NCBI GenBank assembly: GCA_016927065.1
Contig: JAFGNJ010000027.1
Span: forward strand, 36,506 to 100,505
Length of the DNA stretch: 64,000 nt
Source: Deltaproteobacteria bacterium
Lineage (GTDB): Bacteria; Desulfobacterota; B13-G15; RBG-16-54-18
Direction: 5' to 3'
A program made the translations under genes and the position numbers. A model generated the notes under the pieces. That model worked only from the letters and a program-made list of their open reading frames with translations. It did no database searches and had not been told where the DNA came from. The number at the start of each line of letters is the position of its first letter. The first letter of the stretch is position 1. Positions 2,249-54,559 of the stretch are shown piece by piece.

Positions 2249-3982
2249 TTGAAGGTTAAGTTGGCAAGGACAGCGGGTTTCTGCATGGGGGTCCGACGCG
2301 CCATGGAGATAGTCCTAACGGAGATCAATAAAGGGACCTCTCCCCTGTATACCTACGGTCCTCTTATTCATAACCAACAGGTATTAGGGCTGCTCGAAAC
2401 CAAAGGTGTGAAGGCAGTCGATGATATCACGGATCTGGATGAAGGGACCATCATCATTCGGGCGCACGGTATCCCTCCGGCAGAGCGCCGTCGCATCAAG
2501 TCTTCCGGCCTGCGGATCAGGGATGCCACCTGCCCTCGTGTGGCCCGGGTACAGGCGATTATCAGCTCTTACACCAAGCAGGGATATCACGCCGTCATCG
2601 TGGGTGACAAGGATCACCCAGAGGTCAAGGGCCTGATGGGCTATGCCAACGGCAGGGCACACGCCATTAAGAGTGCGAAGGGAGCTTCTCAACTGCCTCG
2701 CATGCGAAAGGTTTTTGTAGTCGCCCAGACCACCCAGGCAGGCCCGACCTTTCGCGAAGTGGTGAAGGCCATCAAGGGTCGATTCCCAGACGCACTTGTC
2801 TTTGATACGATTTGCGACGCCACCTATCGTCGCCAGCGGGAGGTCAGGGCGTTATCGGATCATGTCGACGGCGTGGTGGTGGTGGGGGGCTATAACAGCG
2901 GGAATACCCAACGGCTCGCCCAGATCTCACAGGAAGCGGGGATGCCGACCTTCCACGTGGAGACCGAGGAGGAACTCGACAGTGAGAAATTGCGGGATAT
3001 GGAGGTGATAGGGGTTACGGCAGGTGCCTCGACCCCCACCTGGATGATCAAGAGCGTCGTCAGAGAGATAGAGGGCATACAGAGCCGTACCGAGACCTTG
3101 CTCGGCCGTTGGGTCATCAAGGCCGCTCGTTTCTTGTTGCTGAGCAATGTGGTCACGGCAGGAGGGGCCTTTGCCCTTGCCTATGCGGCCGCCCTCCTCG
3201 CAGGGAGAGATACCGGCATTATCTATCCATCGTTAGCCTTTTTTTATATTTACGCCATGCACGTACTAAATCGTTTTTTGGATAAGGGTGCCAGCGCTTA
3301 TAATGATCCTGAGGTAGCTACCTTTTACAGGAAATATCGGACCTTTTTAGTCGTATCGGGAGTTGTCTCTATTATAATGGCTCTTACCCTTTCCTGGTAT
3401 CTGGGTCTGTGGGTTTTTGTCGCCATGGCAGGGTTAAACCTCCTGGGGATCGTATACAGTGTACCCCTTGTGCCGGCAGGCATCAGGCATCTGTGGCCAT
3501 ACACCCGCATTAAGGACTTTCCTGGATCCAAGACCCTCTCGGAGGCCCTGGCTTGGGGGGTGGTGATCGCCCTCCTGCCCCTGTTAGGCCCCCGTCACGT
3601 TGCACTACTGAGTTCATTAGCAGCATTCATCTTCGTATTTTCCCTTACCTATATCCGGTCGGCCATCTTCGACATCTTTCAAGAGCAAGGGGACCTCATC
3701 GTAGGGGCAGAGACCCTGCCCATTATGCTGGGAGAGGAGAGGACCCTGCTGTTGTTGAAGGGTGTCGTCGTGTTTGCGGGGTTGTTCCTCATCGCAGCCC
3801 CCCTCTCCGGTGCGGTTGGCCCTTTTGCATATCTCCTGATTCTTACGGTCATCTCTTCGGCCTTCTGCCTCCTGGCATATGAGAAGCGGTGGCTTTTCCC
3901 CGGCAGGCGCTTTGAGGCCTTGGTGGAAGGCAATTTCTTCCTAGCGGGACTTTTGGGGTTGATATGGCAGATTCTTACATAA
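2249..3982 (+). CDS. ispH: IspH (4-hydroxy-3-methylbut-2-enyl diphosphate reductase) fused to a C-terminal UbiA-like polytopic prenyltransferase domain
   Basis: N-terminus MKVKLARTAGFCMGVRRA is typical IspH; after about residue 285 the protein becomes polytopic with Asp-containing motifs (HVLNRFLDKGASAYND, DIFQEQGD). Confidence 0.85.
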   Translation: MKVKLARTAGFCMGVRRAMEIVLTEINKGTSPLYTYGPLIHNQQVLGLLETKGVKAVDDITDLDEGTIIIRAHGIPPAERRRIKSSGLRIRDATCPRVARVQAIISSYTKQGYHAVIVGDKDHPEVKGLMGYANGRAHAIKSAKGASQLPRMRKVFVVAQTTQAGPTFREVVKAIKGRFPDALVFDTICDATYRRQREVRALSDHVDGVVVVGGYNSGNTQRLAQISQEAGMPTFHVETEEELDSEKLRDMEVIGVTAGASTPTWMIKSVVREIEGIQSRTETLLGRWVIKAARFLLLSNVVTAGGAFALAYAAALLAGRDTGIIYPSLAFFYIYAMHVLNRFLDKGASAYNDPEVATFYRKYRTFLVVSGVVSIIMALTLSWYLGLWVFVAMAGLNLLGIVYSVPLVPAGIRHLWPYTRIKDFPGSKTLSEALAWGVVIALLPLLGPRHVALLSSLAAFIFVFSLTYIRSAIFDIFQEQGDLIVGAETLPIMLGEERTLLLLKGVVVFAGLFLIAAPLSGAVGPFAYLLILTVISSAFCLLAYEKRWLFPGRRFEALVEGNFFLAGLLGLIWQILT

Positions 3983-4057
3983 CTGGCCCATGGATATAGC
4001 TGCCGTTATTTATGGTATTTTTTTATCTTTCAATTTAGACAGGGTAGAAGATAGCAG

Positions 4058-4330
4058 ATGAATGCATTGATAGATATGCTGCAAAACAATGACGTCCTGT
4101 TGGGATTTGCCAGCGTCGAGATAAAATTTGCCTATCTCGGATCGCTCTTCGCCACCTTGCTCTGCGTGATCTATGGTCTGATGATGTGGAACACGTGCAG
4201 AAAAGCTGCACGGGTACGGAGATCAGTGAAGACGATACGGGTGAAACAAAGAAGACCATCTCGAAGGAGACCAGCGAAGACGGTACGGGTCAGACAAATA
4301 AGACCATCCCGGCGGAGACGGCAACGCTAA
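4058..4330 (+). CDS. small ORF with hydrophobic N-terminus and Arg-rich repeat tail; coding status uncertain
   Basis: ATG ORF whose C-terminal half is encoded by an imperfect ~45-nt tandem DNA repeat; same DNA read in the symporter frame gives an acidic repeat. Confidence 0.2.
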   Translation: MNALIDMLQNNDVLLGFASVEIKFAYLGSLFATLLCVIYGLMMWNTCRKAARVRRSVKTIRVKQRRPSRRRPAKTVRVRQIRPSRRRRQR

Positions 4331-4344
4331 GAGAGGGCAGAGAG

Positions 4345-5955
4345 ATGTTTTTTTATTATAATATTATAATCGCTATCGTATACCTTATCGTCTTGGTCTC
4401 CCTTGCATACAAGGTGCATACGAGGACCAGCACGGCCTCCGATAATACGATCGCCGCCAGAGAGATGCGCCCCAGTGTGATGGCCTTATCGTATGGGGCG
4501 GGATTTCTCGGTACGACGGCGGTTATTGGATTTGGAGGGGCTGCGGCATTGTTTGGGTGTTCCCTCTTGTGGTTGAGTTTTTTCACTATCCTTGTGGGGA
4601 TTTTTATAGCCTTCGTTTTTTTCGGCAGGCGGACCCGACGCATGGGGATGGCCCTCAATGCCCATACCTTTCCGGAAATTTTGGGTGAGCGGTATCAGTC
4701 TCGTTTCATTCAGGGTTTTGCCGGGATGGTGGTCTTTGTCTTTATCCCCATCTATGCAGCCGCTATCCTCATCGGGGTCGCACGGTTCATCGAGGTTTTC
4801 CTCCATATACCCTATGTCGTGGCTCTAGGAACGTTCTCATTTTTTTTAGTTCTGTACGTTATCCTGGGCGGGTTTAAGGCCGTGTTGTATACCGATGCCT
4901 TTCAGGGTGTTGTCATGTTTGTCCTGATGGTGATCTTTTGCTACTTGACCTACCATATCCTTGGTGGAATCATTCCAGCTCATCAGGCCCTGACTGATAT
5001 CGCCCCGCTGGTCCCTGAACACTTGGTCCGCGAAGGTCATCTGGGTTGGACGGCAGGGCTGAGAATAGGGAGCCCCTTGTGGTGGACTGCGTGGTCCAGC
5101 CTCATCTACGGTGTGGGGATCGGTATTCTCGCTCAACCCCAGCTCGTTGAGAGATTTTTGAGGTCCCCTTCGGATCGAGATTTGAACCGTTCCGTATTGG
5201 TGGGAGGGATTTTTCTTTTGGCCATGATCGGGGTCCCTCTCACCGTCGGCCCCTTGACCAATAGTATTTTTATGGAAAGGTTTGGCTACATTGCTATAGT
5301 CATGGCCGAAGGAAATATGGATAAGATCATTCCGCTCTATATCGATACCGTTATGCCCTGGTGGTTTGGCATTGTCTTTCTGATGGGGATCTTGACGGCC
5401 TCTCTGGCTGCCTTAAGCTCGCAATTGCATGTAGGAGGCGCTTCTTTTGGGAGGGATTTTTACGGCAAGGCCATGGGGCTGCATGGGGCGATGGAGGGTT
5501 TTACCACTAAGTTGGGGATAACCATGACCATTATCGCAACTATTCTTTGGGGGCTTGTGTTGCCTCCGAGCGTGATCGTTCGCGCTACCGCCTTCTTTTT
5601 TGGACTTTGCGCCGCCTCTTTTTTACCGCTCTATTTTTTTGGCCTCTATTGGAAGGGGGTTACCAAGGCAGGGGGTATCGCAAGCATGGTGGGGGGGATC
5701 GTGGTAAGTTTTATCTGGATGATTTTTTTTCACGACCAGGAATCAACGATCATCGGGCTTTGCCGAGTCCTCTTCGGCGCGTCAAACCTGGTGGCGGACT
5801 TTCCGCCTCACTCCTGGATATGGCAGTTGCAGTATGTGGACCCCGTTATCGTCGCCCTTCCCCTCTCCTGTGTCCTCTGCTTACTGGTCAGCTCTCTGAC
5901 GCGGAAGATGCCCAGGGGCCACCTCAACCTCTGTTTTAAGTATATATCAAAATAA
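4345..5955 (+). CDS. sodium:solute symporter family transporter
   Basis: Polytopic protein with SSS-like N-terminal TM pattern; ATG at 4345 preceded by AGAGGG Shine-Dalgarno; longest ORF begins at GTG 4186. Confidence 0.85.
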   Translation: MFFYYNIIIAIVYLIVLVSLAYKVHTRTSTASDNTIAAREMRPSVMALSYGAGFLGTTAVIGFGGAAALFGCSLLWLSFFTILVGIFIAFVFFGRRTRRMGMALNAHTFPEILGERYQSRFIQGFAGMVVFVFIPIYAAAILIGVARFIEVFLHIPYVVALGTFSFFLVLYVILGGFKAVLYTDAFQGVVMFVLMVIFCYLTYHILGGIIPAHQALTDIAPLVPEHLVREGHLGWTAGLRIGSPLWWTAWSSLIYGVGIGILAQPQLVERFLRSPSDRDLNRSVLVGGIFLLAMIGVPLTVGPLTNSIFMERFGYIAIVMAEGNMDKIIPLYIDTVMPWWFGIVFLMGILTASLAALSSQLHVGGASFGRDFYGKAMGLHGAMEGFTTKLGITMTIIATILWGLVLPPSVIVRATAFFFGLCAASFLPLYFFGLYWKGVTKAGGIASMVGGIVVSFIWMIFFHDQESTIIGLCRVLFGASNLVADFPPHSWIWQLQYVDPVIVALPLSCVLCLLVSSLTRKMPRGHLNLCFKYISK

Positions 5956-48476: not shown

Positions 48477-49475
48477 ATGCGAGTTCTCTTTCTCATCCAA
48501 GGTTGGGATGTAGCAGCTAGTCGGTATAGAGTACTTCAATATCTGCCATATCTGGAGAAAAGGGGGGTCGAGACCCACGTAGCCACGTATCCCAGGGGTA
48601 TTACCGACTTTGCAACGTTCTTGAGGAGGGTTGCAGATTATGATGTGCTCTTTCTTCAGAGAAAAAGATATAATCCACCTTTTTTGCAGCTTTTACGCTG
48701 GAGGGCACAGGGGATCGTGTATGACTTTGACGATGCTGTGATGTATAGAAACTCTACGGCGCCATCACCTTACTCCAGAACCCGTCAGAAAAGATTTGCC
48801 CGTATCATAAGGGCCGCAGATTATGTCATTGCTGGTAATAATTTCTTGAAAGATCAAGCTTCGAAATTTACCGAACAGGTAACTGTGATACCTACGTCAA
48901 TTGACCGGGATCGATATGATGTTAAAGACTACCAAGAAAAAAAGAACAGGGTATCGATCGGGTGGATCGGAGATCACGGGAGCATCCACTATCTGCAAAA
49001 AATGCGGTCTATCTTTGAAAAACTGGGCAGGAGATATCCTGACCTCGAGCTTAAAATCATCTGCGATACCTTCTTTGACTGTAAAAACATTGAGGTTGTC
49101 AAAAAGCCGTGGAGCCAGAAAGAAGAGGTTGAGGACTTGAAAAGCCTAGACATCGGTGTGATGCCTCTCTTGGATGATCCCTGGTCGTGGGGCAAATGTG
49201 GACTCAAGATACTGCAGTATTATGGAGTAGGAGTGCCGGTAGTCTGCACGCCCGTGGGTGTCAACAGGGATGTGGTACAAAATGGGGTGAACGGTTTTTG
49301 GGCCATGACCAATGACGAATGGATTGAGAAGCTCTCCGTATTGATTGAAGACCCTTCCCTGCGGCAAAAGATGGGGTTACGAGGCCGAGAGTTGGTGAGA
49401 AAGTCATATTCCATACAAGGGTGTGCGTCAATATTTTATGGGGTGTTGGATGAGGTGGCCCGTGGGGGTGTCTGA
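48477..49475 (+). CDS. GT-B fold glycosyltransferase (GT4-like), paralog of 46061
   Basis: Paralog of 46061 protein; ATG at 48477. Confidence 0.75.
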   Translation: MRVLFLIQGWDVAASRYRVLQYLPYLEKRGVETHVATYPRGITDFATFLRRVADYDVLFLQRKRYNPPFLQLLRWRAQGIVYDFDDAVMYRNSTAPSPYSRTRQKRFARIIRAADYVIAGNNFLKDQASKFTEQVTVIPTSIDRDRYDVKDYQEKKNRVSIGWIGDHGSIHYLQKMRSIFEKLGRRYPDLELKIICDTFFDCKNIEVVKKPWSQKEEVEDLKSLDIGVMPLLDDPWSWGKCGLKILQYYGVGVPVVCTPVGVNRDVVQNGVNGFWAMTNDEWIEKLSVLIEDPSLRQKMGLRGRELVRKSYSIQGCASIFYGVLDEVARGGV

Positions 49476-51159
49476 TGATCTATCATATAAGCGGGGGGTG
49501 AAGGGATGGCGATGGACCCTTGTCGAAGGCACGGCTCAGGAGTTACCCCCCTCGTTGCTCGATGATCCAGAGCGATTTCTGTGCAAACACCCTCCACAAA
49601 AAGTTTTAAAAGAATCCCCTGTCCGAACGGTCTCGATTATTTCAGGGCCTCGTGGAAGGCTCTTCCTGAAACGCTATAAGATAAAAAAATTCAAAGAGAA
49701 ATTTAAATACCTCGCGGTCCCCTCCAAGGCACACAAAGAATGGTTGATGGGGCGTCAAGCACTGCGCAAAGGAATCCCCACCCCCATGCCTTTGGCCATA
49801 GCCGAGAGGCGAAAAGGGATTTTTTTACAAGATGCCTTTCTCATAACCCAAGCCATTTTCCCTTCAAGCTCCTTCATTGAATTGATTTTGGACGGAAGAC
49901 ATAAGGACCTTCTATCCCCTGCAGCCCGATTAATCCATCAGATCCATGAAGCCGGTCTCTTCCATCAGGATCTGCATGCCGGCAATATCTTGGTCGGCGA
50001 AAATAATAACAAGCTTTACCTCATTGACCTCCATCGTTCCAGATTCGTAAAGAGTGTTTCCCAACGCAGGAAACTATGGAACCTGGCGCAGTTTTTTTAT
50101 TCTCTCAAAGGATTAATTTCGAATAAAAATAAAAAGGTTTTTTTAAATAGGTACGATAAAGAAGGGAAGACATTTAACAAGGGATTTGAGGAAACTTTGC
50201 GGAGAATCGAGAGGGTGGAGGAGCGGATTTATCGGCGGCATATGAAGAGCAGGACGAAGCGATGTCTCAAAGACAGCGGAGGATTTTATGTCGCCAAGGA
50301 TGATTCCTGGCGGATATGGGCACGGAGGGGGTGGGAGTTCCAGACATTGCTGCAGCTCATAAAAAAACACAAGAAAATTGTTGACAAGGGTACCGATGGC
50401 TTGATCAAGACAGATCGCCGTTCAGCTATCTCCCTTTTCAATTATAGGAAGACCAGGATTTGCGTGAAGGAATACCGTTATAGGGGGGGGCTGGGATGCA
50501 TAAAGGACTGTTTCAGAAGATCCAGGGCCCGCAGGGGATGGCTGATGGGCAATGGGTTGGTGGTCAGGGGCGTCCCAGGGATTACGCCGCAGGCCCTCTT
50601 GGAGCGCAGGGTGAGAGGGTTTTTAAAGGATGCCTTTCTCATCATGGAGACCCCCCCCGGCTATGTCGAGCTTGACCGCTATATGGTTCGGTCTTTTGAA
50701 GGCTTCCCTCATAAAAAACTTAAGGCAAGGACCTTTCTGATGGCCTTGGCAGGGTTCATAGCTCACCTGTATACGCTCAGGATTTCTCATAGGGACCTGA
50801 AGGCCTGCAACATCATGGTGCGGGAGGAGCACGTGGGGTGGGAATTCGGTTTAGTCGATATGGATGATATCCGTTTGGACAAAAACATCCGCACCAGGAG
50901 GTTTGTGAAGGCATTGATTCAATTACATACGTCTACTCCCCTTTTTATCGGCATGGACGATCGAATTGCATTCCTGAGCGAGTATCTGCGGTTGATCGGC
51001 CGAGGTGACATAAGGGAGATCATCAGCGCGGTGAGCAGGGGCAGTAGGGGAAGACAATTGGTCTATGTAGACCCTCAGGGTGATGTGATCATGGATGTTG
51101 CTTGGGAAAAGACTTGCGCTTCCTGTTGTGAACCCGCTCTTTCAAAAGAGGACTTGTGA
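49423..51159 (+). CDS. tandem two-domain lipopolysaccharide (Kdo/WaaP-type) kinase-like protein
   Basis: Two kinase catalytic loops: FHQDLHAGNILV...LIDLHRS and SHRDLKACNIMV...LVDMDD; start uncertain. Confidence 0.7.
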   Translation: MRQYFMGCWMRWPVGVSDDLSYKRGVKGWRWTLVEGTAQELPPSLLDDPERFLCKHPPQKVLKESPVRTVSIISGPRGRLFLKRYKIKKFKEKFKYLAVPSKAHKEWLMGRQALRKGIPTPMPLAIAERRKGIFLQDAFLITQAIFPSSSFIELILDGRHKDLLSPAARLIHQIHEAGLFHQDLHAGNILVGENNNKLYLIDLHRSRFVKSVSQRRKLWNLAQFFYSLKGLISNKNKKVFLNRYDKEGKTFNKGFEETLRRIERVEERIYRRHMKSRTKRCLKDSGGFYVAKDDSWRIWARRGWEFQTLLQLIKKHKKIVDKGTDGLIKTDRRSAISLFNYRKTRICVKEYRYRGGLGCIKDCFRRSRARRGWLMGNGLVVRGVPGITPQALLERRVRGFLKDAFLIMETPPGYVELDRYMVRSFEGFPHKKLKARTFLMALAGFIAHLYTLRISHRDLKACNIMVREEHVGWEFGLVDMDDIRLDKNIRTRRFVKALIQLHTSTPLFIGMDDRIAFLSEYLRLIGRGDIREIISAVSRGSRGRQLVYVDPQGDVIMDVAWEKTCASCCEPALSKEDL

Positions 51160-52107
51160 AACCGTCTTGATTCGATTGGTTCCTTTGATCTCCAAGGGGG
51201 AAAGGGGAAGGAAGATGAGGCGGAGGCGTTCACCATAGGTATCGGAGAGTAATCGGATATAGTGGGCCTGCATTGTCTTCCTTTGTTGGTGGAAGGCGCA
51301 ATCCGCCTGCTCAATGCAATTGTTGACAATCAGATAGTGCACGGGAAGCCCGTGAGTGTCGAAGTTGTGGATGATACGTTCCGTCTGCTTGACCCCTAAC
51401 GACTCGGGGATGGTGACCACGATGTATTCCGTGAGGCGCTCATCTCTGATAAAGGCGGCAATTTCATTGGAGAGTGCCTGCCATCCGGTGATGATTTCCA
51501 AGAGTGATCGCTTGCCTTTCTGCAGCTTCACCGCTTCCTTCGCTTTTTCAAAATAACTATACAGGTTGAGATAGAATTTCGTCGCCCCCTCCAGGTGGCG
51601 TAGGAAGATCTCGGGGAGGTGGAGCAGGCGCAGGGTGTGTCCTGCCGGGGCGGTGTCCCATACCACCAGGTCATACCGTCCCTCGCGCACCAGTTCCATG
51701 ATGAAATAGAGCATATACTCCTCTTCTATCCCCGGTGCGCCTCCCACATAGTCCATGACAAAGTCATAATCGAGGTCGGTAAACGAGGATACTACCTCAT
51801 AGATCTCACGACCGAAACGCTCCTTCCATTTTTCCCGAACGATCTCAGAGGAGACCTCCAGGGCAGTAAGATCGGTGCAAAGAGGGATAGGGGTTTCTCG
51901 GGGGCCGACGGTGATCTCAAAGATATCCGAGAGGGACGGCGTCGGGTCGCTGGACAGGATAAGGGTCTTCTTCCCCAATTCGGCCATGTGCATGGCTATG
52001 GCCGCCGCACAGGTGGTTTTCCCCACTCCGCCTTTTCCCCCTACCAGGATCAATTGTTTTGATCTCCTCTCTAAATCGGAGAAAGACCTTTTCTCTGCGC
52101 TCATCAC
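51142..52107 (-). CDS. ArsA/GET3-family P-loop ATPase (single domain)
   Basis: Deviant Walker A GGKGGVGKTT; 18-nt 3' overlap with convergent kinase gene. Confidence 0.8.
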   Translation of the reverse strand: MMSAEKRSFSDLERRSKQLILVGGKGGVGKTTCAAAIAMHMAELGKKTLILSSDPTPSLSDIFEITVGPRETPIPLCTDLTALEVSSEIVREKWKERFGREIYEVVSSFTDLDYDFVMDYVGGAPGIEEEYMLYFIMELVREGRYDLVVWDTAPAGHTLRLLHLPEIFLRHLEGATKFYLNLYSYFEKAKEAVKLQKGKRSLLEIITGWQALSNEIAAFIRDERLTEYIVVTIPESLGVKQTERIIHNFDTHGLPVHYLIVNNCIEQADCAFHQQRKTMQAHYIRLLSDTYGERLRLIFLPLSPLEIKGTNRIKTVSQVLF

Positions 52108-52114
52108 CGTTTTC

Positions 52115-52378
52115 CTACAATAATACCCCCACCAGGGTCTCAGTGGTTTGGACTCCTTGCAGCCCGCGAATTTGATTGATGACCATTCGTGATAGATCAG
52201 GTATGTTTTTGATCTGGACCTGCACTACTACGTCCCAGCGACCGAAGACCAGATCGGTCTCTTCCACCCCCGGCAGGGCGCTGATCTGCGAGATAGTGTC
52301 GGCCTCCAGTCCGGGAACGAGACTAACCAAGATATAGGCTTTCATCATATTCTCACCCCCCTCTCCTTGTATCTTCAC
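52115..52378 (-). CDS. stand-alone Lrp/AsnC-type ligand-binding (RAM) domain protein
   Basis: About 75-aa beta-alpha-beta-beta-alpha-beta-like pattern; start probably internal Met (MKAYILV). Confidence 0.45.
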   Translation of the reverse strand: MKIQGEGGENMMKAYILVSLVPGLEADTISQISALPGVEETDLVFGRWDVVVQVQIKNIPDLSRMVINQIRGLQGVQTTETLVGVLL

Positions 52379-53257
52379 CTATGAGAGACCTCGGCATCTG
52401 GTCTCTCTCCTCGACTTCAATTCTTCCACCACGTTATATGTGCAGTTCATATCTCCATAACCCTCGCCAAGTTCTTCTTTATCTTTGTTGAGACCGTGAA
52501 AATCACTTCCCCCTGTGACGACAAGTCCATATCTTTGCGCGAGATAGAGGTAAAATTTCGTCTGGCCTTCTGAGTGTTCAGGGTAATATGTCTCTATTCC
52601 ATCCAGGCCTTTTTCTTTTAATACAACTACTACGGTTTCAAGATCCTGTAGTTGGATCTGGTTAAGGGTAAAGGGATGGGCCAAGACCGCTACCCCTCCA
52701 GCCTTGTGAATGACGCTGATGGCCTCTGCCGGGGAGAATCTAAACTTCTCCACGTAGGCAGGTCCTCCCTTGCCAAGGTAGCGATCGAAGGCATCTTGGA
52801 TATTCTTCGCATAACCCTTTTGGACCAGTGCGTATGCGAAGTGTGGACGACCTGTCTGCCCGTCTTCCGGGGCTTTTTTGATCTCTGAGAGTTCTATTTT
52901 GATCCCGAGTCTTTGGAGCTTTTCGATCATTTTTAGATTTCGTTCTACGCGGGCCCGTTGAACAACCGTTAATTTGTCCAATAGTTCTCCATTGGTGTGA
53001 TCAATATAGTATCCTAATAAGTGCATGGTCCCTTTAGGAAAATCCACGCTTAACTCAACCCCGGGGATTACCTCTAATCCCAGCTTGCTTCCCTCCTGCA
53101 ATCCTTCTGCTATACCCTCTATGGTGTCATGGTCGGTAATGGCAATGGCACGAAGCCCCTTTTTTTTGGCATATTGTACTACCTCGCTAGGACTCATTGT
53201 CCCATCGGAAGCCGTGGTGTGGATGTGGAGATCGATTTCGCTCATGGGTGTAGCCAC
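52379..53257 (-). CDS. PHP-domain metal-dependent phosphoesterase
   Basis: IDLHIHTTASDG and AITDHD motifs. Confidence 0.85.
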   Translation of the reverse strand: MATPMSEIDLHIHTTASDGTMSPSEVVQYAKKKGLRAIAITDHDTIEGIAEGLQEGSKLGLEVIPGVELSVDFPKGTMHLLGYYIDHTNGELLDKLTVVQRARVERNLKMIEKLQRLGIKIELSEIKKAPEDGQTGRPHFAYALVQKGYAKNIQDAFDRYLGKGGPAYVEKFRFSPAEAISVIHKAGGVAVLAHPFTLNQIQLQDLETVVVVLKEKGLDGIETYYPEHSEGQTKFYLYLAQRYGLVVTGGSDFHGLNKDKEELGEGYGDMNCTYNVVEELKSRRETRCRGLS

Positions 53258-53259
53258 GT

Positions 53260-54123
53260 TTAAAAGACCTCTCTGAGCCCCACGGCGAGGGTGGGGAAGG
53301 GGATAGGGATGAAGGCGGTAAAGAAGATGACAAAGGTGAGGCCCCCAAGGACCTTTCTACGCCAACCCAAAGGGGTACGGTCGTCGAGGGGGGGAGGATG
53401 CTGGTAACCGATTCGGCTAAAGTGCAATAGGATTGCCAACACGAGCCATCCGAGGTTGTAGATGAGACCGAGGAGGGTGATCCCCACCAGAGTAAGACGG
53501 AAGATGATCTTGCTGTGGCGACCGAAGAGTGCGTAGATGATGTGCCCCCCGTCGAGCTGTCCTGCAGGTAAGAGATTAAGGGCGGTGATAAAAAATCCCA
53601 ACCATCCCGCATACGCAATGGGATGCAAGATGACATCGGTACCTGGGGGGAGATTCCCCAGGACTATCCGCTGCAGGAGCGAGAACAGGGGGGAATTACC
53701 CAATGAAATACTCCTTGCTGCGAGCTGGGATACATCCGTAACCTCAGATAAGAGGAACCCTACGATCACTGCCGGAATGGCCAGTGCAAGACCAAACAGA
53801 GGTCCCCATGACCCGATGTCGAAGAGGGCCTTGCGTTGGGGTATGGGACCTTTCATCCTGATGAAGGCCCCGAGGGTACCAAAAGGGGGGAGGGGCAAGG
53901 GTATAAAATAGGGGAGCGAGCAAGGCACACCGTATTTGCGGCTGGCAAGATAATGCCCGGTCTCATGGGCTCCGAGAATGGAAAGAATGGCTATGGAATA
54001 ACAGATGCCACCCGTTATTGAGTAGCTCAATGTACCTGATGTGGATAATCCCAACCCTCCAATAAAAAGGGTAGAGCCAACGGTCATGAGAAAAAGGACC
54101 ACATTGGGCCAAAAAGATCTCAT
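53260..54123 (-). CDS. M50 (site-2 protease) family zinc metalloprotease
   Basis: HExxH within TM helix (GAHETGHYL) and LDGG motif (AGQLDGGHIIY). Confidence 0.85.
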   Translation of the reverse strand: MRSFWPNVVLFLMTVGSTLFIGGLGLSTSGTLSYSITGGICYSIAILSILGAHETGHYLASRKYGVPCSLPYFIPLPLPPFGTLGAFIRMKGPIPQRKALFDIGSWGPLFGLALAIPAVIVGFLLSEVTDVSQLAARSISLGNSPLFSLLQRIVLGNLPPGTDVILHPIAYAGWLGFFITALNLLPAGQLDGGHIIYALFGRHSKIIFRLTLVGITLLGLIYNLGWLVLAILLHFSRIGYQHPPPLDDRTPLGWRRKVLGGLTFVIFFTAFIPIPFPTLAVGLREVF

Positions 54124-54137
54124 GGAGGTCGGTTAAG

Positions 54138-54227
54138 CTATTTCCTTTTGTGGCGATCTCTGACAAGTTGTTTTTTGTGTTTGTGTTTTCTCATTTTCTT
54201 ACGTCTTTTTTTTGTAACGCTTCCCAT
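54138..54227 (-). CDS. 29-aa highly basic small protein resembling ribosomal protein bS22 (formerly AURKAIP1/COX24-like)
   Basis: Not in ORF track; MGSVTKKRRKKMRKHKHKKQLVRDRHKRK; AAAGGAG Shine-Dalgarno 7 nt upstream. Confidence 0.5.
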   Translation of the reverse strand: MGSVTKKRRKKMRKHKHKKQLVRDRHKRK

Positions 54228-54229
54228 AT

Positions 54230-54559
54230 CTAATCTCCTTTTCCAGTTGCTGTTTCTATCCATTGCAAATAATCGGCATCGCCCTTTTCTAATGATATGG
54301 CGGTGATCTCCGGGACCTCATAGCTATGAAGTTCTCTAATGCGGCTCCGTATTTTCTCGAAGAGATCCGCCCGGCTTTTAATCAAGATGAGGCTTTCACT
54401 TTCGTCACAGATATCACCCTTCCACCGGTAGATGGAGCGGATCTGAGGTATTATGTTTGCGCAGGCGGCCAGCCCTTCTTCCACTAAATGTTTACCAATC
54501 GAAGCAGCCTCCTGTTCAGAGGCAGCGGTTACAAAAATGATAACAGTTTTACTTTTCAC
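54230..54559 (-). CDS. cutA: divalent-cation tolerance protein CutA
   Basis: 109 aa; CutA1-like pattern (ACANIIP, SIYRWKG, HSYEVPE). Confidence 0.85.
   Translation of the reverse strand: MKSKTVIIFVTAASEQEAASIGKHLVEEGLAACANIIPQIRSIYRWKGDICDESESLILIKSRADLFEKIRSRIRELHSYEVPEITAISLEKGDADYLQWIETATGKGD

Follow-up and report, generated by a model that had tools for sequence, protein, structure and literature searches.

The window analyzed in this study is a 64,000-nucleotide stretch of DNA from an uncultured Thermodesulfobacteriota ('Deltaproteobacteria') bacterium. Between a cutA gene and a gene for an M50-family metalloprotease lies a very short open reading frame (ORF) that very probably encodes the small ribosomal protein bS22. 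The features of this region, which are all located on the minus strand, are listed below in the direction in which they are read.

54230..54559, minus strand: cutA, 109 aa, upstream of bS22 (Pfam CutA1, E=2e-37)
54235..54241, minus strand: Shine-Dalgarno motif AAAGGAG, read directly from the sequence, within the final cutA codons
54138..54227, minus strand: bS22 coding sequence, 29 codons plus a TAG stop, product MGSVTKKRRKKMRKHKHKKQLVRDRHKRK
54124..54137, minus strand: 14-nt spacer CTTAACCGACCTCC, from the bS22 stop to the M50 start (54123)
53260..54123, minus strand: M50-family (site-2-protease-like) membrane metalloprotease, 287 aa (Pfam Peptidase_M50, E=2.6e-22)
52379-53257, minus strand: PHP-domain phosphoesterase, directly downstream of M50 (Pfam/NCBIfam)
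52115-52378, minus strand: 87-aa protein with an AsnC-type ligand-binding domain (Pfam)
51142-52107, minus strand: Get3/ArsA-family ATPase (Pfam/NCBIfam)

The bS22 ORF reads ATG GGA AGC GTT ... AGG AAA TAG on the minus strand, with the ATG at 54227-54225 and the TAG at 54140-54138. The spacer between AAAGGAG and the ATG is 7 nt long (ATTAGAT, 54234-54228), and the cutA stop codon (TAG, 54232-54230) falls inside it, which places the Shine-Dalgarno motif within the final codons of cutA and the ATG 2 nt past the cutA stop. A preceding sequence-only reading had proposed a 29-aa minus-strand ORF with a canonical Shine-Dalgarno sequence at 7-nt spacing, fitting exactly between cutA and the M50 gene, and all of this was confirmed: translation of 54227..54138 gave MGSVTKKRRKKMRKHKHKKQLVRDRHKRK, the motif lies at 54241-54235, and the M50 start follows the ORF stop by 14 nt. 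The 29 residues of the peptide include 10 Lys, 6 Arg and 3 His (55% Lys+Arg). The same reading had described the gene as unannotated, which holds for the ORF track but not for public databases. The mechanical ORF list, whose default minimum is 60 aa, shows the ORF only when this minimum (min_aa) is brought down to 20, and gives it in a 41-aa form (54138..54263) that begins at an upstream ATG overlapping cutA. On the other hand, the identical 29-aa protein is present in GenBank as MBN1255787.1, encoded on a contig of 159,540 bp, under the name "AURKAIP1/COX24 domain-containing protein".

The cutA product scored 109.9 bits against NCBIfam CutA, under the cut-off of 120. The genes that follow M50 (51142..53257) are co-oriented and tightly packed, and are regarded here as neighbourhood only, separate from bS22. 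For the PHP-domain protein (52379-53257), the NCBIfam model for 3',5'-nucleoside bisphosphate phosphatase matched best, at 217.7 bits against a cut-off of 400, and that for RNase RNM reached 188 bits against 375; neither score comes near its cut-off, and no assignment follows from them. RNase RNM/AM (Escherichia coli YciV) trims the 5' ends of rRNA, and if the PHP protein were RNase RNM-like, the string would hold two ribosome-related genes. On the plus strand, a gene at 49423-51159 encodes a 578-aa protein with two kinase-like regions, in which two stretches matched the Kdo/WaaP lipopolysaccharide-kinase family (E=1.8e-32) and residues 404-469 gave a weaker Pkinase match; this gene runs toward the ArsA/Get3 gene and overlaps its end by 18 nt (51142-51159). 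No ribosomal protein genes adjoin bS22, and an Rfam scan of the whole window at gathering thresholds gave 0 matches, and thus no rRNA (16S included) or riboswitch context. Counts of promoters and terminators between 50900 and 55000 were at or under the shuffle expectation; a promoter-like site upstream of cutA (54702-54675, minus strand) agreed with the consensus at 9 of 12 positions, which is a consensus match only.

Based on curated profiles, the product was then compared with known families. The sequence-only reading had likened it to bS22 of Actinobacteria and Bacteroidetes, and a search against the bS22 and AURKAIP1/COX24 families agreed with the family itself. Against NCBIfam NF047430 (ribo_bS22, 30S ribosomal protein bS22), an equivalog model with a cut-off of 34, the peptide scored 36.8 bits (E=3e-9, profile positions 1-29 of 31), a margin of only 2.8 bits, and two same-locus relatives scored 46.4 and 62.6 bits. 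Against Pfam PF08213 (COX24_C/DUF1713, the AURKAIP1/COX24 domain), whose gathering cut-off is 23, the score was 27.3 bits over profile positions 1-29 of 33; this match agrees with the precomputed Pfam assignment and with the name that the identical protein has in GenBank. Judged from its sequence, the peptide is thus a member of the bS22 family by curated profile cut-offs.

Structures of ribosomes gave a similar picture. A single-sequence phmmer search of all PDB chains matched bS22 of 9j1m, 9e16, 8crx, 5o5j and 6dzi (E=1e-5 to 2e-2), chains that come from mycobacterial and Cutibacterium ribosomes and align with the peptide without gaps along the pattern MGSV-KKRRK-M-K-KH-K-L-R-R. When a clade profile built from 15 bS22 sequences was run against the entire PDB, bS22 chains were matched at E=1e-9 to 1e-17 and mitochondrial mS38/AURKAIP1/Cox24 chains at about 0.006-0.2, with no match other than bS22/mS38 at E<=1; since the peptide is short and compositionally extreme, E-values of this kind rest on few informative positions. 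Residues MGSV, K6, R8, K10, K11, K14, H15, K16, K19 and R25 are invariant in the 15 clade sequences.

The closest known relatives appeared to be actinobacterial. The window protein and Mycobacterium smegmatis bS22 are identical at 18 of 28 aligned residues and have in common the N-terminal MGSV-KKRRK-M motif and Lys16, the latter aligning with K16 of the M. smegmatis protein. Actinobacterial bS22, which is encoded by MSMEG_0945 in M. smegmatis and Rv0550B in M. tuberculosis (bioRxiv 10.1101/2023.03.31.535098), is also about 30 aa long and extremely basic, and belongs to the same NCBIfam equivalog and Pfam family; its structures include PDB 5o5j, 5zeb and 8crx, and Cutibacterium acnes bS22 is a further protein of this type. 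The two differ in length (29 aa in the window, 33 aa in Actinobacteria) and in the centre, which is His-rich in the window protein (KHKHKK) and reads KKKHRK in actinobacterial bS22. In addition, the window protein comes from another phylum and another gene neighbourhood (cutA/M50). The proposed likeness to Bacteroidetes did not stand: bS22 of Porphyromonas gingivalis (9i5v; PMC12123416) gave E=2 with the peptide and was absent from the clade-profile PDB search at E<=1. The matches to actinobacterial chains, together with the non-significant value for 9i5v, point to a peptide of the actinobacterial sequence type, and not of the Bacteroidota type.

Since the peptide consists so largely of Lys and Arg, shuffle controls were run. 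Against an HMM built from two actinobacterial bS22 sequences only, the real peptide scored 24.6 bits, whereas the maximum among 20,000 shuffles was 12.3 bits (0/20,000 reached the real score) and the reversed peptide scored -6.0. Nine shuffled peptides and one reversed peptide gave no NCBIfam match even at E<=10. Six-frame translation of the window and of the 80 loci described below gave 17,531 stop-to-stop segments, among which the family HMM picked out 23 hits of at least 32 bits, the rest remaining below 10 bits, and exactly one of the hits was in the window.

To place the ORF among its relatives, the M50 protein was scanned against one genome per GTDB species, which yielded 80 loci (labelled L001 and so on). 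Conservation of the ORF at the same position, which the sequence-only reading had named as a check, was found in 22 of these loci, where the ORF lies directly 5' of M50, always on the same strand as M50, and carries a coding substitution pattern. It was present in all of the twelve closest loci (M50 identity 60-77%; MAGs labelled Deltaproteobacteria or Thermodesulfobacteriota), and the ten more distant loci with the ORF belong to Syntrophobacterales and other Thermodesulfobacteriota, with M50 identity down to about 48%. No bS22 was found within about 4 kb of M50 in the other 58 loci, which come from Atribacterota, Planctomycetota, Acidobacteriota and other groups. An ORF of the L013 type scored 30.2 bits against NF047430, under the cut-off of 34. 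Nearly all relatives have AAGGAG or GGAGG about 4-10 nt before the ORF start, and L015-L017 have a weaker GGAAGGA. In the alignment of the 22 sequences, 14, 10 and 28 of the 29 columns vary at codon positions 1, 2 and 3, respectively, and pairwise codon differences were 2612 synonymous versus 1056 non-synonymous; dN relative to the window was 0.01-0.26, with dS saturated in nearly all pairs. A substitution pattern of this kind is typical of a translated gene on which purifying selection acts strongly. The curated cut-offs, the matches to ribosome-bound chains in the PDB and the positional conservation support the proposal of an overlooked bS22 gene, and all indications are that this bacterium carries a genuine bS22 gene with a strong Shine-Dalgarno sequence of its own.

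Two of the loci carry archaeal labels. L049 (JALHSQ010000162.1, 2,996 bp) is labelled 'Candidatus Bathyarchaeota archaeon', yet it has bacterial-type genes and shares one bS22 amino-acid sequence with three Thermodesulfobacteriota loci (L034, L066 and L079). L067 (JAHLWS010000007.1) is labelled 'Promethearchaeota archaeon', yet its genes are also of bacterial type, and its M50 protein, at 56% identity, is within the range of the Atribacterota hits. Both contigs are probably mis-binned.

Database records of the family were affected by gene calling. A word-index homologue search with the 41-aa ORF returned 2 proteins only, which is no measure of family spread; when 1.84 billion cluster representatives were searched exhaustively with a profile, 210 matched at E<=0.001. 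A 30-aa member of the same 90% cluster as the window protein is found on 15 contigs as "hypothetical protein". Most of twelve representatives inspected (set P0004-P0153) were calls of 40-113 aa with bS22 at the extreme C-terminus, and several of them contained a translated ribosome-binding site before bS22 ('...KGGEIMGSV'). These longer calls reflect a systematic over-extension of start codons by gene callers, the same artefact as in the 41-aa ORF of the window. P0114 and P0147 showed read-through at the 3' end instead of an over-extended start. The bS22 family, the curated models NF047430 and PF08213 and the exact window protein are all already known.

Two alternative readings concern the existence and the extent of the gene. 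A very short ORF of low-complexity basic composition, which passes NF047430 by less than 3 bits, might be a frame left open by chance in A-rich intergenic DNA, and might resemble bS22 only because it is rich in Lys and Arg. However, none of the shuffles reached the real score with the independent HMM, shuffled and reversed peptides had no NCBIfam match, and the ORF is found at 22 loci with dN far under dS, a conserved Shine-Dalgarno motif, and invariance of MGSV, K16 and other positions. The selection pattern, the HMM separation and the shuffle controls effectively refute a chance frame, whose probability we regard as vanishingly small. The second reading takes the 41-aa ORF (54263..54138), initiated at the upstream ATG and overlapping the 3' end of cutA, as the true product, which is the form given by the mechanical ORF list and is similar in length to many database entries of the family. 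It seems extremely improbable: the closest relatives have an in-frame stop a few codons before MGSV (four codons in, for example, L001-L004, L006-L008 and L012), so that the 12-residue extension is absent from them; the extension has no bS22 profile match, as the profile aligns from residue 13; the spacing of the Shine-Dalgarno motif suits the internal ATG; and the long database entries carry a translated Shine-Dalgarno sequence ('KGGEI') before MGSV, as expected of over-extended calls. Given the absence of the extension in the closest relatives, the 41-aa form is an accident of the window genome.

With the 29-aa form preferred, we consider it very probable that the window protein is a ribosome-bound bS22. 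This protein is the bacterial counterpart of mitochondrial mS38 (AURKAIP1 or, in yeast, Cox24) and an analogue of eukaryotic eL41. In published structures of homologues, bS22 forms a bent helix that lies deep within a 16S pocket formed by h2/h27/h44/h45 near the decoding centre, and touches H68/H70 of 23S upon subunit joining; the Bacteroidota and Borrelia proteins occupy this same pocket (PMC10618245, PMC7797042), as do mS38 and eL41 (PMC10618245). The M. smegmatis bS22 gene is non-essential, and Lys16 of its product touches the backbone of h44 and has an influence on the aminoglycoside pocket (bioRxiv 10.1101/2023.03.31.535098). All solved bS22 come from Actinomycetota, Bacteroidota or Borrelia. 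By analogy with the homologue structures, the 29-residue peptide would form a bent alpha-helix and insert into the 16S rRNA pocket of h2, h27, h44 and h45 beside the decoding centre, where its conserved Lys16 would touch the backbone of h44 like that of the M. smegmatis protein, and the peptide would contact 23S rRNA (H68/H70) as an intersubunit bridge. Translation of bS22 presumably starts from its own strong Shine-Dalgarno sequence embedded in the end of cutA, and the cutA-bS22-M50-PHP string is probably co-transcribed.

Members of this group outside Actinobacteria resemble the window protein to different extents. Flavobacterium johnsoniae Fjoh_1533, P. gingivalis 9i5v and Borrelia burgdorferi bb0822 are also basic peptides of the 30-aa class, and bS22 of Bacteroidota and Borrelia was likewise missed by gene callers and annotators or labelled hypothetical; it was, however, named on structural grounds, and its similarity to the window protein is non-significant. 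For Borrelia bS22, tryptic mass spectrometry failed (PMC10618245). The C-terminal domain of mS38 belongs to PF08213 as well, but mS38 proteins carry a long N-terminal part and reach 70-200 aa or more, whereas the window product of 29 aa corresponds to the domain alone, and the sequence similarity of mS38 to the window clade is marginal. An assignment to mS38 proper was rejected, the product consisting of the domain only and the 41-aa extension being not conserved. Unlike the bent bS22, eL41 is a single unbent helix.

The order of genes around bS22 is conserved to different degrees. The string cutA, bS22, M50, PHP phosphoesterase, 87-aa AsnC-type gene and Get3/ArsA ATPase is kept in L001-L008, L010 and L012, with some gaps (the 87-aa gene is absent from L001 and L004, and L007 stops short of the ATPase). 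These same ten loci have cutA upstream of bS22, as does L058, at 41% identity. The bS22-M50 pair occurs without cutA in L009, L011, L013, L015-17, L034-35, L049, L066 and L079 (at about 3,500-4,800 in the coordinates of each locus), and a small gene resembling the AsnC ligand-binding domain takes the upstream place of cutA in L015-17, L034-35, L049, L066 and L079. The pairing of bS22 with M50 is therefore more conserved than the cutA-bS22 pairing noted earlier, and the M50 gene can be viewed as the conserved partner of bS22 in this lineage.

The start of the M50 gene was analyzed for its own signals. The spacer CTTAACCGACCTCC contains no Shine-Dalgarno motif before the M50 start; its duplex energy with the anti-Shine-Dalgarno sequence is +0.4 kcal/mol, and it resembles that sequence instead of complementing it. 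Most bS22-linked loci similarly have an M50 start without a Shine-Dalgarno sequence (L001-L012, around locus position 4001). A start that lacks this signal and lies 14 nt past the bS22 stop suggests translational coupling, and it is a possibility that M50 is translationally coupled to bS22. A comparison of M50 genes without and with bS22 gave median Shine-Dalgarno strengths of -3.2 and -1.8 kcal/mol, respectively, which is not a significant difference (p=0.18), the starts of distant loci being uncertain. An mRNA structure conserved between the Shine-Dalgarno motif and the start of M50 was also considered and rejected (consensus -3.75 kcal/mol, essentially no covariation).

The linkage to M50 leads to further readings of what the peptide does. 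The ORF could mainly be a leader peptide or translated upstream ORF whose task is to bring ribosomes to the M50 gene, with the peptide itself secondary and M50 dependent on coupling. The position of the M50 start and its lack of a Shine-Dalgarno motif agree with such a role, as does the adjacency of ORF and M50, which is more conserved than that of cutA and the ORF. However, the amino-acid sequence is strongly constrained over its full length and matches proteins bound to the ribosomes of other phyla, neither of which is needed for coupling alone; in addition, M50 genes without the ORF have no significantly stronger Shine-Dalgarno sequence, and coupling could coexist with a ribosomal role. We thus judge a mere leader function to be very unlikely. 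It is highly unlikely, in our view, that a real bS22-family peptide has here a non-ribosomal role tied to the M50 protease, for example as a nucleic-acid-binding or membrane-active peptide. Such a role would fit the persistence of the M50 pairing down to about 48% M50 identity and the lack of ribosomal genes nearby, but every characterised family member is a ribosome component, both the N-terminal motif and the Lys16 that contacts h44 are retained, and gene adjacency alone is weak evidence of function. A broader proposal keeps bS22 as a constitutive part of Thermodesulfobacteriota ribosomes and holds that its lineage-wide linkage to an M50 gene without a Shine-Dalgarno motif is not neutral synteny but a functional or regulatory coupling. 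The PHP phosphoesterase resembling RNase RNM comes after M50 in the closest relatives, and coupling of this kind might tie the synthesis of a protease and a nuclease to the translation of a ribosomal protein; we regard this proposal as unlikely.

Our results, which favor a ribosome-bound bS22, are mildly new in two respects: the likely presence of bS22 in Thermodesulfobacteriota ribosomes, and the lineage-wide adjacency of bS22 and M50, neither of which is documented in the literature examined. Among the top-ranked papers for bS22 and delta-proteobacterial taxa, none contained 'bS22', and a co-mention is possible in lower-ranked ones. The study of the Borrelia ribosome predicted that unannotated bS22 would be present in further bacteria, as short ORFs are missed (PMC10618245), and the window provides sequence-level support for bS22 outside Actinomycetota, Bacteroidota and Borrelia, as these authors predicted. 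It also shows clearly how a 29-codon ribosomal protein gene is dropped by ORF tracks with length thresholds. Beyond correct annotation the finding matters little, and NF047430 and PF08213 already capture the gene. bS22 lies next to the decoding centre, and in mycobacteria it modulates the access of aminoglycosides (bioRxiv 10.1101/2023.03.31.535098); its distribution among phyla thus has a bearing on ribosome heterogeneity and antibiotic susceptibility.
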